Under the pieces are notes generated by a model. The model made no database searches, had not been told where the DNA came from, and worked only from the letters and a program-made list of their open reading frames with translations. The position numbers and the translations under genes are program-made. This document shows positions 17,693 through 49,949 of a DNA stretch of 64,000 bases, one piece after another. Positions within the stretch are counted from its first letter, which is position 1, and the number at the start of each line of letters is the position of its first letter. The stretch comes from Alphaproteobacteria bacterium (GTDB lineage: Bacteria > Pseudomonadota > Alphaproteobacteria > GCA-2731375), in NCBI GenBank assembly GCA_965225945.1, contig CBDDBZ010000034.1, positions 352,280 to 416,279 on the forward strand. Direction: 5' to 3'.

Positions 17693-17918
17693 GCGGCTGG
17701 TCTCCATGTGACGAACCGTGCTAGCGTCGGCCTCGCCGAGCGTAGGGAAGCCGGTGCGGTCCGCGCGCGCGACTATTATGGACGTCGAGCGGGTCAATTC
17801 CGGCGCTGCCCCCGCAACTGTAGGAAGGAGGGCGCGGCAGAAAGCCACTGGTTCGGGAAGCACGATCCGGGACTGGGAAGGCGCCGCGTCCGACGACTTC
17901 GAGCCAGGAGACCTGCTC
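17693..17918 (+). promoter_or_regulatory. Cobalamin (B12) riboswitch
   Basis: AGGGAA-CCGGTG...AATTCCGG-GCTGCCCCCGCAACTGT...GCCACTG...CTGGGAAGGC...GAGCCAGGAGACCTGC in order, directly upstream of cob genes; boundaries approximate. Confidence 0.93.
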
Positions 17919-43668: not shown

Positions 43669-44490
43669 ATGAGCGAGGGCGGGACGGGGCGGTTGATGGC
43701 GGGTAAGCGGGGCTTGGTGCTCGGCGTCGCCAACGATCATTCGATCGCCTGGGGCGTGGCCCGGCGGCTCGCGGCGCATGGCGCGGAACTCGCCTTCACC
43801 TATCAGGACGACGCCTTTCGCAAGCGGGTCGAGCCGCTGGCGGCCGCGGTCGGGGCTGAGATCGTCATGGCGTGCGACGTCGCCGACGCAAGCAGCCTCG
43901 ACGCGCTCTTCGGCGAGCTGAGCACGCGCTGGGGCCGGCTGGATTTCCTGGTCCACGCGATCGCCTATTCCGACAAGGCCGAGCTTCGCGGCCGTTACGT
44001 CGATACGACGCGGGAGAATTTCCGCAACACGCTGCACATCTCCTGTTTCTCCTTCACCGATCTCGCGCGGCGCGCCACCGCGCTGATGGACGGGGGTGGC
44101 AGCCTGGTGACGCTCACCTATCTGGGGGCCAGCCGGGTGATGCCGAGCTACAACGTCATGGGCGTCGCCAAGGCTGCGCTGGAGGCGAGCATCCAATATC
44201 TCGCGGTCGATCTCGGTAAGGACGGGATCCGGGTCAACGGCATCTCGGCCGGGCCGATGCGGACGCTGGCCGGCTCGGCCATCGCCGATGCGCGCTACGT
44301 CTGGCACTACAACCAGGACAATTCCCCCCTGAAGCGCAACGTCACCCTGGACGAGGTGGGGAACGCCGGGCTCTATCTGCTGAGCGATCTTTCCGCCGGC
44401 GTGACCGGCGAGACCCTGCACGTCGACGCGGGCTTCCACGTCATCGGCATCCCCAGGCCTTCATCGAAGGACGAGGGCGGCGAAGGCTGA
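43669..44490 (+). CDS. fabI: Enoyl-ACP reductase
   Basis: GVANDHSIAWG, YNVMGVAKAALE, ISAGPMRTLA and VTGETLHVDAG. Confidence 0.96.
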   Translation: MSEGGTGRLMAGKRGLVLGVANDHSIAWGVARRLAAHGAELAFTYQDDAFRKRVEPLAAAVGAEIVMACDVADASSLDALFGELSTRWGRLDFLVHAIAYSDKAELRGRYVDTTRENFRNTLHISCFSFTDLARRATALMDGGGSLVTLTYLGASRVMPSYNVMGVAKAALEASIQYLAVDLGKDGIRVNGISAGPMRTLAGSAIADARYVWHYNQDNSPLKRNVTLDEVGNAGLYLLSDLSAGVTGETLHVDAGFHVIGIPRPSSKDEGGEG

Positions 44491-44513
44491 AGCCCTCGGC
44501 CAAGACCCCACCA

Positions 44514-45010
44514 TCACGAGATGACGGGCGGTTCGTGGCTCCACTCCGTGTGTTCGAAGGCGCGCGCGGGCGCGTGGCCGGCGGTGGCGCGAAAGCCGCC
44601 CCAAGGCCAGTCCCGGGGCCGCGCCACCATGCCGGCGCGGACCGGGTCCGGCACCACATGGCGGCAGAGCTCCAGGAGATGCGCCTCGCGCTCGACCAGA
44701 ATAGCCTTGTAGCGGCCTTGGAAGACGTGCCCGGTCCGCCCTCGGGCCCGGTCGGCCGCTGGGTGAAGACGCCGTTCAGCTGCCGCATGCCGCCGGACAG
44801 GTTCGCCATCGGTGTCTCGACGAGCAGATGGTAGTGGTTGTCCATCAGACACCAGGCATGCCGGAGCCAGGCGAAGCGCTCGACCGCCGCGCCCAGCAGG
44901 TCGACGAAGAGCCGGCGATCATCGTCGTCGCGCACGATGTCGGCGCGGGCGTTGCCCCGGTTGGTAACGTGGTGGAGCGCGCCGGGGTATTCGATGTGGA
45001 GCGGTCGCAA
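44514..45010 (-). pseudogene. Y1/HUH (REP-associated tyrosine transposase-like) transposase, frameshifted and truncated
   Basis: YPGALHHVTNRGN, CLMDNHYHLL (HUH), then in another frame GHVFQGRYKAILVE...HVVPDPVRAG; the usual YxxxNPV motif has decayed. Confidence 0.85.
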
Positions 45011-45618: not shown

Positions 45619-45862
45619 CGCAATAATTCCCCGATGGTAGAATGCGTAGTCGGCCTTTATTGGTGCATTCGACTAGGTTCGTATTCTCAGCAAAACTATA
45701 GCACCTTCGCGCAATCTCGTGAACTATGATCTTAGATTGACTCCTTCGGGTCATCAGCCAACGAAAGTCGAATCCTGTCGCCACATGCGAAACCTCCGGC
45801 AAAGTGGATATTGGCACTCGGATGGTCGCGGTAGGGAAGCGGGTTGCCGCGCTCCCCCCGCA

Positions 45863-45976
45863 GTTACGGTAGGAATGCGCATTGCTGCGCACCCCCCGCG
45901 GTTACGGTAGGAATGCGCATTGCTGCGCACCCCCCGCGGTTACGGTAGGAATGCGCATTGCTGCGCACCCCCCGCG
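45863..45976 (-). repeat. Three identical tandem 38-bp group II intron domain VI units
   Basis: CGCGGGGGGTGCGCAGCAATGCGCATTCCTACCGTAAC (minus strand) at 45863-45900, 45901-45938 and 45939-45976, with no spacers. Confidence 0.93.
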
Positions 45977-47857
45977 CAGATCCGGACGTGGTCGTTGAAC
46001 CATCCGGCTCCTACCTCGGGTGCTTGACGGCAAACCGCTGGTCCGGCCATGGGTGGCGGATGGAGGCGCGTGGCCACAGGATTTCGGTCATGCGCTCCAG
46101 TCGCTTCCAACTAAATCGGGCTCGCTGGGACCGGCGGCGTAGCGCCCGCATCCACCGGCGTTGCAGCCTGCGGAGGAACGCACGGATGAACCGGCCTGAC
46201 CCTGGGACGGCAAAGTAGTTGAGCCAGCCATTGCAGACTCGCCCCAGCCACCTACCAACTTCCCAGATGTCGTGGTGCCAGCGCTTGCGGAGCACCTCGT
46301 CGATGCGCGCCAGGGTCCTGTTGACCCGTTTGGCGACCGGTTTGCGACCAAGCCGAAAGCGTCCTCTCAGGGTCGTCGTGCAATAGTGCGTGAGGCCCAG
46401 AAAGTCGAAAGTCTCCGGCTTGCCCACCCCGCGCTGGCGCCGGTTCAAATCCGCGAACCGGCCAAACTCCACGAGGCGGGTCTTGTCCTGGTGGAGGCTG
46501 AGACCGAACCGGGCCAGCCTCTCCCGAACGTCGCGGAGGTACCGCTCCGCATCCCGCTTGTGTTGGAACCCGACAACGATATCGTCAGCGTAACGGACGA
46601 TGATCGCTTCGCCATCCGGGACGTTCGGGCGCCATTTCTTGTGGAACCACAAGTCGAGCACGTAATGCAGGAACACGTTCGCCAAGACGGGGGAGACTAT
46701 TGCCCCCTGCGGCGTGCCCATACCCGTATCTGCCCATGACCCACTCTCTATGACGCCGGCGTTCAGCCATTTCCGGATCAGACGGATGACCCGCCTGTCT
46801 CCGATGCGGTGCTCTAGGAACGTGATCAACCAATCCCGCGGGATCGTGTCGAAGTACGCCCGGAGGTCTGCATCGACTATCCAGCTGACCTTGCGCCGTT
46901 CTATCCCGAAGGCCAGGGCATCGAGCGCATCGTGCGCCCCCCGCCCCGGTCGGAACCCGTAGCTGAAGCCAAGAAACACCACCTCGTAGATCGGTGTCAG
47001 GATCACATCCACAACCGCCTTCTGGACGACCTTGTCCTCCAGCGCCGCGATCCCGAGCGGTCGTGTCCCCCCGTCCGGCTTGGGTATCTCTACCCGCCGA
47101 ACCGGCGGCGCCCGGTACGCTCCCCCTCTGTGCAGGCGCCGGTGCAGGTCGAGCAGGCGCTCATCCAGACCCTCGCCGTACATGTCCCACGTAACGCCGT
47201 CGACACCGGCTGCTGCGTCCTTCTTCAATGCGAAGTAGGCCGCACCGAGCGCGTCCGGCGTAATGTGGTGGAAGAGCGAAGTGAGACGTTCCTTCGGGTT
47301 TCTCTCTGCAGCTTTCCGTATCCGGGCCGCCGCCTGTGGCACGCTTACCCGACACTGTGTTCGGCGCGTGCTTTGGCAATCCGGATTCCCCTTGGTTGAG
47401 GCCCTTTCCTCCGGCGACTCCGCAGAAGCTCGCGCTCCCTTGTTCGCCGCCCTCACAGGTCGTACGGCCTCATCCGACTTCTTCAAACCGTTCATCATAG
47501 GCTTCGGTTTTCTCCATTCCCTACGCGGCCCCTTTACGACAACCGGGGCAGTTTGAAGACCTCCCAGGGTCCCAACAGAAGGCGTGCGAACGTGCATGGG
47601 TTCTCTGACACCGCGGGGCTCGCCGACATCTCACCAAAACGACGCCTGCGATATTGCCTTCGACCGATCTGAAAGCCTCGGCACCCCGGACCATCGCTTT
47701 TACGGTGCTCAATAGCCCTGCCCATCCATGCCGCTACCGACGCTTCGCCTGCCCCCTCACGGGAGCCAACGCACGGCTCGCGGAGAAACGTGGTTCGGTT
47801 ACTCCTTCGTTCCGGGGGACTTGCACCCCCTACCTTCTGCCAGTTCGCCTGGCGCAC
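45939..47857 (-). mobile_element. Inner group II intron, full length (bacterial class E-like by appearance)
   Basis: 5' end GTGCG at 47857; IEP in DIV; DV GAGCCGGATGGTTCAACGACCACGTCCGGATC at ~45979-46010; DVI with bulged A, ending AAC. Confidence 0.92.
46011..47498 (-). CDS. ltrA: Group II intron reverse transcriptase/maturase, no endonuclease domain
   Basis: AAGVDG, IPKPDGGTRPLGI, SYGFRPGR, GTPQGAIVSPVLAN, RYADD, FDFLG and GWLNYF; ends after domain X. Confidence 0.95.
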   Translation of the reverse strand: MMNGLKKSDEAVRPVRAANKGARASAESPEERASTKGNPDCQSTRRTQCRVSVPQAAARIRKAAERNPKERLTSLFHHITPDALGAAYFALKKDAAAGVDGVTWDMYGEGLDERLLDLHRRLHRGGAYRAPPVRRVEIPKPDGGTRPLGIAALEDKVVQKAVVDVILTPIYEVVFLGFSYGFRPGRGAHDALDALAFGIERRKVSWIVDADLRAYFDTIPRDWLITFLEHRIGDRRVIRLIRKWLNAGVIESGSWADTGMGTPQGAIVSPVLANVFLHYVLDLWFHKKWRPNVPDGEAIIVRYADDIVVGFQHKRDAERYLRDVRERLARFGLSLHQDKTRLVEFGRFADLNRRQRGVGKPETFDFLGLTHYCTTTLRGRFRLGRKPVAKRVNRTLARIDEVLRKRWHHDIWEVGRWLGRVCNGWLNYFAVPGSGRFIRAFLRRLQRRWMRALRRRSQRARFSWKRLERMTEILWPRASIRHPWPDQRFAVKHPR

Positions 47858-47910
47858 CAGACCCGAGCGGGCGCGATTGACGCACTCGGTTCCTCACCTG
47901 GCAGGTTCGC

Positions 47911-48295
47911 TCAAGAGTTTTGCCATGAGCGCGTGAACGTGACTGGCGGCAGGGGATGCCGCTTGAGGATTTCTGCCATCCGGTCCCAGTTCAGGCACCT
48001 GAGGCGGCTGCGGCGTGTAAGCCACTTCCGCCAGATGCGGACGACCTGGTAGCGGAACCAACCGAGACGTTTGCCATTTCCCGTCAGACCGTAATATGCG
48101 CAGTGGCCTCGGATCACCTTAGCGAGGTGATCCCGCTGAGCCTCGATCGGCAGGTGCCGGTGTCTCTTGCACCAGTCGTGCACCGATTTCAGCGCGCGGG
48201 CGAAGCGGCCCTTCGCCGTGATTTGACGAACGACGTCCTTGCCTTGCATCGACCGCCCCCAAACGTGGGTGAAGCCGAGGAAGTCGAACGTCGTG
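47911..48295 (-). pseudogene. C-terminal fragment of a second, divergent group II intron RT/maturase
   Basis: TFDFLGFTHVWG...IRGHCAYYGLTGN...WRKWLTRRS...HPLPP. Confidence 0.85.
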
Positions 48296-48310
48296 GCCGA
48301 CGCCATCCAG

Positions 48311-48489
48311 TGGCGCCCGTACCCTGCAAGCCGCCTGGGCCCTTCACCCCGAACGCTTCGTCCACGGCACCCCGAAACCCGCCCCGCTTCCCGAAGCCGT
48401 CTGGATCAACCCACCCGCCACTTCCACAACAGGAGAAACGAGTCAGTAAATAGAAACCGTCGGTGTCTCAAAGTCGTTGACAGGTTCCG
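48311..48489 (+). mobile_element. 3' remnant of an IS3-family element that truncates the outer intron
   Basis: Reads RTLQAAWALHPERFVHGTPKPAPLPEAVWINPP then stop, followed by end-like TGTCTCAAAGTCGTTGACA. Confidence 0.65.
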
Positions 48490-48630
48490 CCCCGAAGTAC
48501 AGCCTCCTTAGGGGTCATACCGACTAAAATACGCAACCGGCGAAAGTTGGTTCAGCAATAATTGTGAGTCGGACCCGATTTCCTTGGACACAGAATTGGT
48601 TTAATCGAAGTGTCCAAGGAGGACCGGAAC

Positions 48631-49041
48631 ATGACCGACAATTTTGAAAACAAAGTTGCTGTTGATGGGCCTGTGGTAAACGAGGGCGAGCTTGGCTCGT
48701 CCACGTTTTCCCCGGGCCAGGTTTCGCCGGCAGGCCCGCTGGGACTTGGCCAGCGGTGGACGGTGACGCGCAAGCGTGAGGTTGCCCTGCGGCTTTTGCG
48801 TGGCGAGCCGGTGGAACTTTTGTCGCGGCAGTTGGGCGTGGAGATTTTCCGGCTCGAGCAGTGGCGTGAGAAGGCGATCGCCGGGATCGATGCCTCGCTC
48901 AAGGAACGCAAGGGCGATCCGGTAAAGGCGGAACTGGACATCGCCATGAAGCGGATCGGGGAGTTGATCATGCAGGTGGAACTGCTGGAGGCCAAGACGG
49001 AGACGTCCGGCCCTTTGGGGCGGCGGAGGTCGCGGCGATGA
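48631..49041 (+). CDS. Transposase OrfA (HTH)
   Basis: RWTVTRKREVALRLLRGE...LSRQLGV, then a leucine-zipper-like tail. Confidence 0.8.
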   Translation: MTDNFENKVAVDGPVVNEGELGSSTFSPGQVSPAGPLGLGQRWTVTRKREVALRLLRGEPVELLSRQLGVEIFRLEQWREKAIAGIDASLKERKGDPVKAELDIAMKRIGELIMQVELLEAKTETSGPLGRRRSRR

Positions 49042-49949
49042 GTGCCGCCACCTCTCCCGGCACGGGTTTGGCCTACGGCCTCCAGCGGGTCTGTGCGGCC
49101 TGGGGTTTTGCCCGTTCCTCGTTCTACGCCATGAAATCCCGGCAGCAGGCCACCGCTGAGCGCCCACCAGCAAAGCGCCGGGGACCGAAGCCCTCGATCT
49201 CGGACGAGGCTCTGCTGGTGGCCATCGAGGCCGACCTGGAGGCATCCCCCTGGGAGGGCGAGGGACACCGCAAGGTCTGGGCTCGGCTTCGGGTCTGTCG
49301 TGGCATCCGTGTTTCCCGCAAGCGGGTGCTCCGGGTGATGCGCGAGAACAACCTGCTCTCGCCCCATCGCTGCCGCCGCCGTGGCGGAAATCCCCATGTC
49401 GGTGAGATCATCACCCATGCCCCCAACCTCATGTGGGGCACGGACGGCGTTCGGGTGTTCACGGTGGACGACGGCTGGGGCTGGATATTCACCGCCATCG
49501 AGCATTGGAACGCCGAGTGCGTCGGCTGGCATGTGTGCAAGCGAGGCGACCGCTTCGCCGCCCTTCAGCCGATCTCCATGGGGCTTGCGAGGCTGTATGC
49601 CTCGACCTCCGCCGGTGCGGCGCGGGGGCTGGCCTTGCGGATGGATCACGGCTCCCAGTATCTGTCGGACCACTTCACCAACCAGATCAAGTTCTGGGGC
49701 ATCCAGCCGTCCTACGCCTTCGTCGAACAGCCCCAGACCAACGGCGTCGCCGAGAGGTTCAATCGCACGCTCAAGGAACAGATCATCCATGGCCGCATCT
49801 ACCGCAACATCGCGGAGCTGCGGAACGCCGTCCGCGGGTTCGTCGAACAGTACAATGCCCAGTGGATCGTGGAGAAGAACGGCTACCTGAGCCCCGCTCA
49901 AGCTCGTCAGGCGTGGCACACCGCGATGTCACTCAGGCCCGCCGCATGA
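49038..49949 (+). CDS. DDE transposase OrfB (rve core)
   Basis: NLMWGTD, MDHGSQY and PQTNGVAERFNRTLKE; ATGA overlap with orfA. Confidence 0.9.
   Translation: MSAATSPGTGLAYGLQRVCAAWGFARSSFYAMKSRQQATAERPPAKRRGPKPSISDEALLVAIEADLEASPWEGEGHRKVWARLRVCRGIRVSRKRVLRVMRENNLLSPHRCRRRGGNPHVGEIITHAPNLMWGTDGVRVFTVDDGWGWIFTAIEHWNAECVGWHVCKRGDRFAALQPISMGLARLYASTSAGAARGLALRMDHGSQYLSDHFTNQIKFWGIQPSYAFVEQPQTNGVAERFNRTLKEQIIHGRIYRNIAELRNAVRGFVEQYNAQWIVEKNGYLSPAQARQAWHTAMSLRPAA

Follow-up and report, generated by a model that had tools for sequence, protein, structure and literature searches.

How does a group II intron come to stand exactly at the junction between domain V (DV) and domain VI (DVI) of another group II intron? 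The question is raised by a locus on the minus strand of a 64,000-nucleotide (nt) stretch of DNA, here called the window, which belongs to contig CBDDBZ010000034.1 of assembly GCA_965225945.1 from a sponge-associated alphaproteobacterium. The 5′ end of one intron in this window, which we call B, directly follows the DV of a second intron, A. B encodes a reverse transcriptase (RT), and we consider it likely that it is an active retroelement without endonuclease that targets DV ends through pairing of its exon-binding site 1 (EBS1) with the sequence G(A/G)UCUG, and that nesting together with recombination gave both the arrays of B in this genome and the locus in the window.

The junction between intron A and intron B

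Intron B itself is complete (Table 1), as the first-pass annotation of this DNA had proposed. Its start, GTGCG at position 47857, agrees with the conserved GUGYG 5′ end; domains D1–D4 match the Rfam model RF02005 over 47823–47599 with 163.7 bits against a gathering score of 49; and the open reading frame (ORF) for a 495-residue RT and maturase protein lies intact in domain IV (DIV). The maturase match (GIIM) reaches 21.8 bits, under the 23-bit cut-off, and no endonuclease domain was found in the protein, which has no Pfam match past residue 465. The DV–DVI boundary of B lies 35 nt past the ORF stop. Both domains fold as such, the DVI with its bulged A, and together (46012–45939) they score 35.4 bits with RF00029, under the gathering score of 40. 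The genome, a draft of 39 contigs and 6.27 Mb, holds about 20 copies of B at different sites that are 97–100% identical, which points to a mobile group II intron.

The same annotation had read the 5′ flank of B as the RT tail and DV of a different intron, and this too was confirmed. A 131-residue ORF (FDFLGFTH...) reads as the RT tail of another intron; no Pfam match was obtained for it. A congeneric genome (G002) has this tail at 97% identity and a further genome (G037), where the frame stays open for 449 residues, at 90%. The 36-nt hairpin next to B folds like a DV, in which a 2-nt bulge separates a lower from an upper stem. To score it, a covariance model was built on 43 distinct DVs of B relatives from other genomes, with the A type excluded; all 516 of 516 pair cells in the training alignment are paired, and 6 of the 12 pairs change on both sides. 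Run across the whole window with filters off, the model gave the A hairpin (47893–47858) 43.9 bits (E = 1.9e-11), compared with control values of 48.9 bits for B's own DV and 11.9 bits for the best other place. The general model RF00029, at E up to 10, did not report A's DV. B's 5′ end stands immediately after a genuine DV of a different intron.

An unoccupied version of this site exists. G037 carries an intact relative of A (locus L102) in which DV is followed by DVI without interruption, ...CGCTCGGGTCTG/TGGGGGGAGGGGCTCGGCAACGACCCCTCCTACCCGGC, with the junction itself reading ...GGGTCTG/TGGGGGG... (here and below a slash marks the junction). The relative scores 103.3 bits with RF02005 and 33.9 bits with RF00029 across DV–DVI, and is an empty target site. 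The same A DV is followed by the first 103 nt of B in G002 (L101/L128), and by a B-lineage 5′ end in L026/L112 and in a third genome, G061. Comparison of the empty with the occupied sites places the insertion precisely at the DV–DVI junction, where the first-pass annotation had put it.

The 3′ side of the locus turned out differently. The window had been taken to hold an intact twintron, that is, an intron within an intron, whose outer DVI would be the divergent hairpin at 45825–45862 and whose joined flanks would restore a normal DV–DVI junction. A 38-nt DVI unit is repeated 3.9 times over 45976–45829 (Tandem Repeats Finder); by hand count, the fourth copy departs from the other three, which are identical, at 9 of its 38 positions. 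This fourth unit folds as a DVI, is 89–92% identical to the DVIs of B-class introns in other genomes (L042, L043, L046 and L048), and resembles the DVI of another intact intron in the window's own genome. The A-type DVI is different (TGGGGGGAGGGGC...): it stands after B's DVI in L026/L112, L032, L033 and L055, where both flanks of B belong to one outer intron, and likewise in G002, within the 3′ portion of a copy that has been split (L125). A search of the whole genome of the window did not find it. The fourth DVI with its 3′ flank had no match in G001 or G002, and in G037 only a 39-nt DVI match. Since the fourth DVI is of the B class and not A's, two different host introns have supplied the flanks of B in the window, and the locus is a rearranged relic; its joined flanks are a chimera. 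Intron A, single-copy in this genome, is moreover 5′-truncated, because homology to the fuller A copies stops at 48321, with a repeat and an insertion sequence beyond, and its own DVI has been lost. Recombination between B copies or arrays in different hosts would be the simplest origin of the mixed flanks.

Public runs that contain the stretch are sponge and related metagenomes and metatranscriptomes. All four runs used consist of contigs, from which depth, gaps and presence in an RNA library say nothing firm on expression or copy number; the occurrence of B sequence in RNA-library contigs, likewise, does not prove transcription. In one contig (run X1) the 3′ part of B with a single B DVI runs directly into the fourth DVI and the 3′ flank, so that the 76 nt of the two extra DVIs are missing. 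An 864-nt contig from an RNA library (run X15) holds the join of a DV end to the intron 5′ end, so that the sequence goes back by 1881 nt. A short contig of the same library joins A's DV to an A-type DVI, and represents either the spliced twintron or an unoccupied A of another strain.

Guide pairing, arrays and recurrence

What fixes the position of B is suggested by the loop of a D1 hairpin, CAGAUC, which pairs 6/6 with GAUCUG or GGUCUG at all the G(A/G)TCTG junctions, as expected of EBS1 and intron-binding site 1 (IBS1). Loop and flank change together across lineages: CAGATC/GATCTG, CAGACG/CGTCTG, CCGTCC/GGACGG, TCGGCG/CGCCGA, TCATTC/GAATGA and TAAGCG/CGCTTA. In a relative whose RT is 86% identical to B's (L028 and L030), EBS1 is CGCATC and the flanks end in GATGCG; two bases of the loop have changed, and with them the target, which is not associated with introns. 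Over the whole table of loops and flanks, 32 of 49 rows show 6/6 pairs, with 5′ ends assigned by a heuristic that probably misplaced some of those in the rows with few pairs. Among distinct hairpin/flank rows the count is 17 of 32, against a mean of 4.0 and a maximum of 9 for letter-shuffled flanks and a mean of 2.7 and a maximum of 8 for flanks permuted among rows (2000 trials each). Introns of this class keep the DV end, ...GGATCTG and then (T/C)GCGGGGGG, even where their RTs are only 50% identical. B sits exactly at the DV–DVI boundary because its EBS1 loop matches that conserved end, and an intron with CAGAUC consequently finds a target in most of its relatives as well as in itself.

The genome of the window displays the consequences. 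Of its B copies, 14 have an assessable 5′ junction; five more were left out because a contig end, an insertion sequence or a truncation interrupts them. The flank ends in GGTCTG or GATCTG in all 14 cases. In eight of them the DV upstream is B's own (...CCGGATCTG/GTGCGCC); in three it belongs to another intron, namely A in the window and, on contigs C24 and C37, a ‘C type’ with identical 150-nt flanks. The last three junctions lie in ordinary DNA, one flank of which appears by eye to be an IS3-type orfA gene. Hence 11 of the 14 are at DV ends, at the same base after DV each time, a pattern of repeated insertion like that of Methanosarcina acetivorans. This is an enrichment, as DV ends make up only 21 of the 8685 G[AG]TCTG sites in the genome. 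Counted from the target side, a B 5′ end comes next at 8 of 18 B DVs and a DVI at the other 10, and all three heterologous DVs with this ending are occupied.

Several copies follow one another head to tail and repeat every 1881 nt exactly, a unit that runs from the intron's 5′ end through the final base of DV. The numbers of cores and DVIs per array are at least 3.5 (contig end) and 4, 2 and 6, 2 and 1, and 1 and 3, the window having one core and 3+1 DVIs; copies in clean ordinary targets have one DVI. Cores that stand side by side with the DVIs gathered at the end speak for nesting at the DV–DVI boundary, not for tandem insertion of whole introns.

Three further observations concern these arrays. 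On contig C24 (G000:C24:80300-81030, minus strand, in L006; G000 is the window's genome), B's DVI is followed by TGCGGG and then by an ORF-less mini-intron of about 650 nt with a DV (...GGGTTTTG) and DVI of its own, which looks like a three-level nest in which a different intron has targeted the start of a DVI. In the first unit of a three-core array (G000:C31:260175) the usual GTGCGCC start reads TTGCGCC, through a consensus error or because the 5′ U is real. Behind a B array (G000:C33:304480-304860) lies a mosaic of DVI and C-type 5′-end pieces, probably an assembly or consensus problem, or else a complex rearrangement.

Other genomes show the same junction. With B's protein, 72 loci were fetched and scanned with the DV model. 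Six of the 72 (L026, L031–L034 and L055) have a DV hit that ends directly before the 5′ end of the query intron, all six of the B lineage and all with an A-type DV. B-lineage introns at A-type or B-class DV ends were found in G002, G037 (L026), G061 and one metagenome contig. Of the distinct DV contexts in all loci fetched from other genomes, 10 lead directly into an intron 5′ end and 81 into a DVI, numbers that come from a sample baited with B and do not give a frequency.

The richest case is G061, the genome of L031, whose 4.6-Mb chromosome has 120 matches to a B-like intron, at least 22 of them full length and about 40 internally deleted (positions 1–546 joined to 1739–1918; the L135, L143 and L148 regions hold such copies or tandems). 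Its 31 distinct 5′ junctions, from 35 loci (L031–L034, L055 and 30 more), comprise 20 after an A-type DV, 11 after the 3′ end of another B unit and none elsewhere. Two EBS1 variants in this genome (CAGATC and CCGATC), set against two A DV ends (TCTG and TCGG), give counts of 11 and 5 against 1 and 3, which is at most suggestive of co-variation between B's EBS1 and its target. In the genomes of the six loci named above A is ORF-less, measuring 746 nt up to DV in L026 and 836 nt in L055, and in L055 the units of A with B inside follow each other in tandem with a period of 2792 nt.

Elsewhere, B occupies ordinary DNA. Seven of nine distinct flanks in G002 are ordinary, the other two being DVs (of A and of another B-class intron); G037 has one flank of each kind; all five copies in the metagenome-assembled genome (MAG) of L021–L025, whose RT is 99% identical, lie in ordinary DNA; and a metagenome scan for the junction pattern yielded only three contigs, one with a DV flank and two in ordinary DNA. 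The ordinary targets end in GATCTG-like hexamers. As most copies in two other genomes lie in ordinary DNA, B is not intron-specific. The first-pass view that B parasitizes introns through their conserved core thus survives as a recurrent site, seen in 11 of 14 junctions here, in other genomes and in an ORF-less lineage, but not as a restriction to introns, given the ordinary-DNA copies of the L021–L025 MAG, G002, G037 and the metagenome.

That ORF-less lineage provides a second inner intron, found at DV–DVI in two further assemblies. It is 832 nt long, is unrelated to B and carries CAGATC in the same hairpin, and in L057 and L058 its insertion point is precisely the DV–DVI boundary of a B-class intron, with both flanks belonging to the one host. 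The host's RT is 56% identical to B's and its exons differ between the two loci; L065 has nearly the same DV–DVI uninterrupted. The 5′ end of the 832-nt intron also follows a DV in L056. The same locus (L056:1-2888) contains a B-class intron in domain I of another intron (...CATTGAGCCGCG/GTGCGCC), with an EBS1, CGTGGC, that matches the flank, which makes this a twintron at one more conserved site.

Table 1. Positions of the introns, their parts and adjoining elements in the window
Feature	Position	Strand	Basis
Intron B, complete (5′ GUGCG, D1–D4, RT ORF, DV, first DVI)	45939–47857	−	Motif, Rfam, Pfam
Intron B-encoded protein, 495 residues, RT and maturase	46011–47498	−	Pfam RVT_1 1.4e-36; GIIM 1.9e-4
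EBS1 of B (CAGAUC), loop of D1 hairpin GCCGAGGCUUUCAGAUCGGUCGAAGGC	47666–47671	−	6/6 pairing with 5′ flank; covariation
DV of intron B, ends ...CCGGAUCUG; target for B itself	45977–46011	−	DV model 48.9 bits
Two extra copies of B's 38-nt DVI	45863–45938	−	Tandem Repeats Finder and unit listing
Divergent DVI of a B-class intron other than B	45825–45862	−	Fold; 89–92% identity to other DVIs
DV of intron A, ends ...GGGUCUG; last six bases are IBS1 of B	47858–47893	−	DV model, fold
RT/maturase tail of intron A (3′ part; 131-residue ORF 48306–47911)	47911–48321	−	Identity to fuller A copies
Fragment of high-copy repeat, truncates intron A	48322–48564		Depth jumps and loose ends at 48318/48321
IS3-family insertion sequence (orfA/orfB)	48565–49949	+	Pfam rve, rve_2, rve_3 and HTH_21 on 49038–49949; far end unmapped

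The surroundings of the locus are a cluster of mobile-element remains. The repeat fragment, which truncates A together with the adjoining IS3-family element, is 76% like the end of an element that interrupts a B-like intron in L031, and the same IS3-family end abuts B at position 1101 on contig C38, interrupting that copy; B copies are themselves struck by insertion sequences. Just downstream of the introns, a weak match to an IS200-like Y1 transposase (E = 3.3e-4, under the cut-off) occupies 44441–45010 on the minus strand. Farther away, at 17744–17914 on the plus strand, lies a cobalamin riboswitch (RF00174, 82.7 bits). As to A, introns of this type start with TTGCGCC, that is, with a 5′ U (L026:2896; L055:15 and 2807), and the A-type DV (window 47890–47860, GAACC...GGGTC) has AAC instead of the AGC triad and A.G where B has G.A, a swap also present in L092, L097 and L098.

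A nesting scheme and its competitors

From the observed junctions, the empty site, the EBS1–IBS1 covariation and the recurrence in other genomes, we infer the following retrohoming pathway, order of events and recombination steps. B would select its DNA targets mainly by the six bases of EBS1 (CAGAUC), paired with the last six bases of the 5′ exon, G(A/G)UCUG. The 3′ strand of DV in this class, with the two-base linker to DVI, reads ...CGG(A/G)UCUG, so that every resident intron of the class (B, the A type and the C type of C24 and C37) carries a target at its DV–DVI boundary. Reverse splicing and reverse transcription at this site would split the host into D1–DV upstream and DVI downstream, and repeated strikes into B itself would give [D1-DV]n followed by [DVI]n. 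Homologous recombination between the 1881-nt or the 38-nt units would then produce unequal numbers, [D1-DV]n[DVI]m, and swapped flanks. The window would hold one such product, in which a single B core stands behind the DV of a truncated A and ahead of three DVIs of B and a further one from another B-class host.

Having set out this scheme, we would note that several facts weigh against it. First, self-nesting is not general: it is seen at none of the 31 junctions of G061, where the tandems are complete units in a row behind an A-type DV; in none of the six full-length copies listed in G002 (L111, L113, L115, L117, L119 and L121); and in none of the five copies of the L021–L025 MAG, even though the DV–DVI sequence is the same there. 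The arrays may therefore stem from a few insertions, followed by unequal crossing-over or composite movement. Second, core and DVI numbers seldom agree (1 against 3+1 in the window, 2 against 6, 2 against 1), and later unequal recombination would be needed to account for this; the genome is moreover a draft of 39 contigs in which three arrays touch contig ends. Third, with 8685 G[AG]TCTG sites in the window's genome and DV ends at only 21 of them, a six-base match is too little to account for the choice, and pairing alone does not account for 11 out of 14. A candidate EBS2 lies in the unpaired segment that precedes the EBS1 hairpin; it forms 9/9 pairs with the exon in L072, and that of B (GCGAUG) matches CATCGC in two ordinary flanks. 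It does not match the DV sites, and is thus not the source of the preference for them. This preference may reflect survivorship in harmless sites, insertion near the donor, amplification of arrays or an RNA-level route.

Survivorship, taken as the whole explanation, is the alternative with the best claim, although we think it somewhat improbable. B would enter any GATCTG-like site as a generalist, copies inside introns and insertion sequences would persist because they do no harm, and the arrays would grow by unequal crossing-over or composite mobility rather than by repeated targeting. The predominance of ordinary targets in two genomes fits this well, as do the unequal numbers of cores and DVIs, the lack of self-nesting in G002, the L021–L025 MAG and G061, and the insertion sequences that have struck B copies in their turn. 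Even so, the first nesting events would still have to hit the exact junction; three types of host DV in this genome, and more elsewhere, have been struck at the same base; and 21 DV sites among 8685 hexamers make a very small neutral target.

The converse, that B is a specialist parasite of catalytic cores whose EBS1 has been selected for the DV end, and that the window holds an intact twintron with its outer DVI at 45825–45862, seems to us rather unlikely. In its favour, the DV end (...GGATCTG, then (T/C)GCGGGG) is conserved to 50% RT identity; two unrelated inner lineages share the EBS1 CAGAUC; each of the 31 junctions examined in G061 is preceded by an A-type DV or, in an array of this kind, by a B unit; and no heterologous DV target in the window's genome is vacant. 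The outer intron of the window, however, is truncated and its real DVI missing. Most copies in G002 and all five of the L021–L025 MAG sit in ordinary DNA, and in the relative whose RT is 86% identical both EBS1 and the targets differ from those of B.

Alternatively, an A that lacks an ORF or has a degenerate one could spread together with the B inside it as a composite element, B being the sole source of RT. The ORF-less A copies of L026 and L055, both with B inside, the 2792-nt tandem, the 20 junctions of A's DV with B in the fetched G061 loci, and the outer intron that holds an ORF-less inner intron at two places with different exons (L057 and L058) are all in keeping with joint movement. 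We nevertheless regard it as an unlikely account of the locus, as an ORF-containing A without B exists (L102), B moves alone, the RT tails of A and B are only distantly related (A's tail is 36–40% identical to the C-type tails of the same genome) and nothing shows B's protein acting on A.

Misassembly of repeats, finally, would account for the 47857/47858 join and the arrays in a draft some of whose 39 contigs end inside arrays, whose C33 mosaic looks like an assembly or consensus error, and for which short-read contigs collapse the DVI repeats, but for the joins we reject it with near certainty, because the same join of A's DV to B recurs in separate assemblies (G002 at 97–99% identity, L026/L112 and G061), the self-join of DV to the 5′ end stands in a contig of another data set (X15), and the joins fall at the exact canonical intron end and obey EBS1–IBS1 pairing.

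The nesting scheme may extend beyond B, which we put forward tentatively. The DV end could be a self-renewing homing site of this endonuclease-less class, used by the RT-encoding B, by its ORF-less derivatives and by an unrelated ORF-less intron, with hyperparasitic hierarchies (an ORF-less A that carries B, or B in B) able to fill the genome of a symbiont. The preference for DV ends over thousands of GATCTG sites might then come from insertion near the donor, or from reverse splicing into intron RNA followed by recombination; either route, if true, would revive the idea of intron spread at the RNA level.

On the nesting scheme, a guide of six bases can make a landing site of a ribozyme's most conserved part, so that introns multiply inside each other and leave the genes of the host untouched. 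In the [D1-DV]n[DVI]m arrays nature has placed the catalytic and the branch-point domains of one intron kilobases apart, and such constructs bear on the distance that splicing tolerates, on the origin of split and trans-splicing introns and on the survival of ORF-less introns. For annotation of this class a simple rule follows: a group II 5′ end straight after ...GGATCTG, together with a run of 38-nt DVI hairpins, marks nested copies that intron finders miss.

Comparison with known nested introns

Nested homing into introns is known from Methanosarcina acetivorans, where the target reportedly lies in the intron ORF (DIV), to go by the title of the 2003 paper of Dai and Zimmerly. B differs in that its target is not an ORF site but the DV–DVI boundary, and for this reason its nesting separates the catalytic DV from the branch-point DVI and leaves an array of DVIs. 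Self-insertion of one same intron is also prominent in B. PMC4424553 describes the M. acetivorans nests as repeated homing into other introns, up to five levels deep, at a ‘perpetual homing site’, with deletions by homologous recombination offsetting the insertions and without harm to the host; the nests are mentioned in PMC2882425 as well. Repeated site-specific homing into related introns is what B shares with them. The first-pass annotation could not place B's targeting in any described system, and M. acetivorans shows that repeated homing into introns does have a described counterpart (PMC4424553), but the site appears to be new.

A second comparison is offered by the twintrons of Thermosynechococcus elongatus (Mohr, Ghanem & Lambowitz 2010, PMC2882425), in which ORF-less inner introns lie in DIV of ORF-containing outer ones. 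Recognition there is nearly all by RNA base pairing, and ORF-less introns sit inside ORF-containing ones, as they do here. The site, however, is between the first two ATGs of the DIV ORF, the introns are of the IIB1 type with endonuclease-containing proteins, and no split-domain arrays result. The plant mitochondrial intron cox1i1149g2 (Zumkeller, Gerke & Knoop 2020, PMC7049729) resembles B in having invaded a copy of itself, behind intron position 652. According to the same text this was a single organellar event away from DV–DVI, with an unspliced (‘zombie’) inner copy and no RT-driven arrays. Other sites are on record too: domain I for an inner intron of Trichodesmium (PMC4649490) and DIV for a red-algal twintron (PMC4476101), while a pipeline described in PMC8919778 cannot detect the outer introns of twintrons.

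Tandem 3′ domains after a single core, with several 3′ splice sites, are known from Clostridium tetani C.te.I1, which has four DV/DVI repeats (McNeil, Simon & Zimmerly 2014, as summarized in PMC4424553). The repeated unit there is DV plus DVI and serves alternative splicing of a host gene, whereas B repeats only DVI, apparently as a by-product of nesting. Terminator or attC stem-loops precede the insertion sites of group IIC introns (PMC4424553), which resemble B in their use of a hairpin, a short IBS1 and a protein without endonuclease domain. In B, by contrast, the IBS1 lies mostly within the 3′ strand of the hairpin (4–5 of its six bases are inside the DV 3′ strand), EBS1–IBS1 pairing extends over 6 bp, many targets are ordinary DNA, and the ribozyme matches RF02005, a match that may not exclude group IIC.

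The internal introns of Euglena chloroplast twintrons often lie in domains V or VI. We know of no EBS1-defined homing into a conserved DV end, and of no self-nested arrays, described for Euglena. The likeness lies in the order of removal, the inner intron having to go before the outer one folds and splices (Copertino & Hallick, via PMC4424553), and the difference in the degenerate, organellar nature of the Euglena introns. The full-text literature that we searched, outside which most subscription papers and supplements fall, yielded no description of homing into DV–DVI or of [D1-DV]n[DVI]m arrays, and an earlier description is possible. Set beside these systems, nested homing into introns in general has precedent, while the DV-end landing site, the base-pairing reason for it, the self-nesting arrays and the recurrence with two inner lineages appear to be new.

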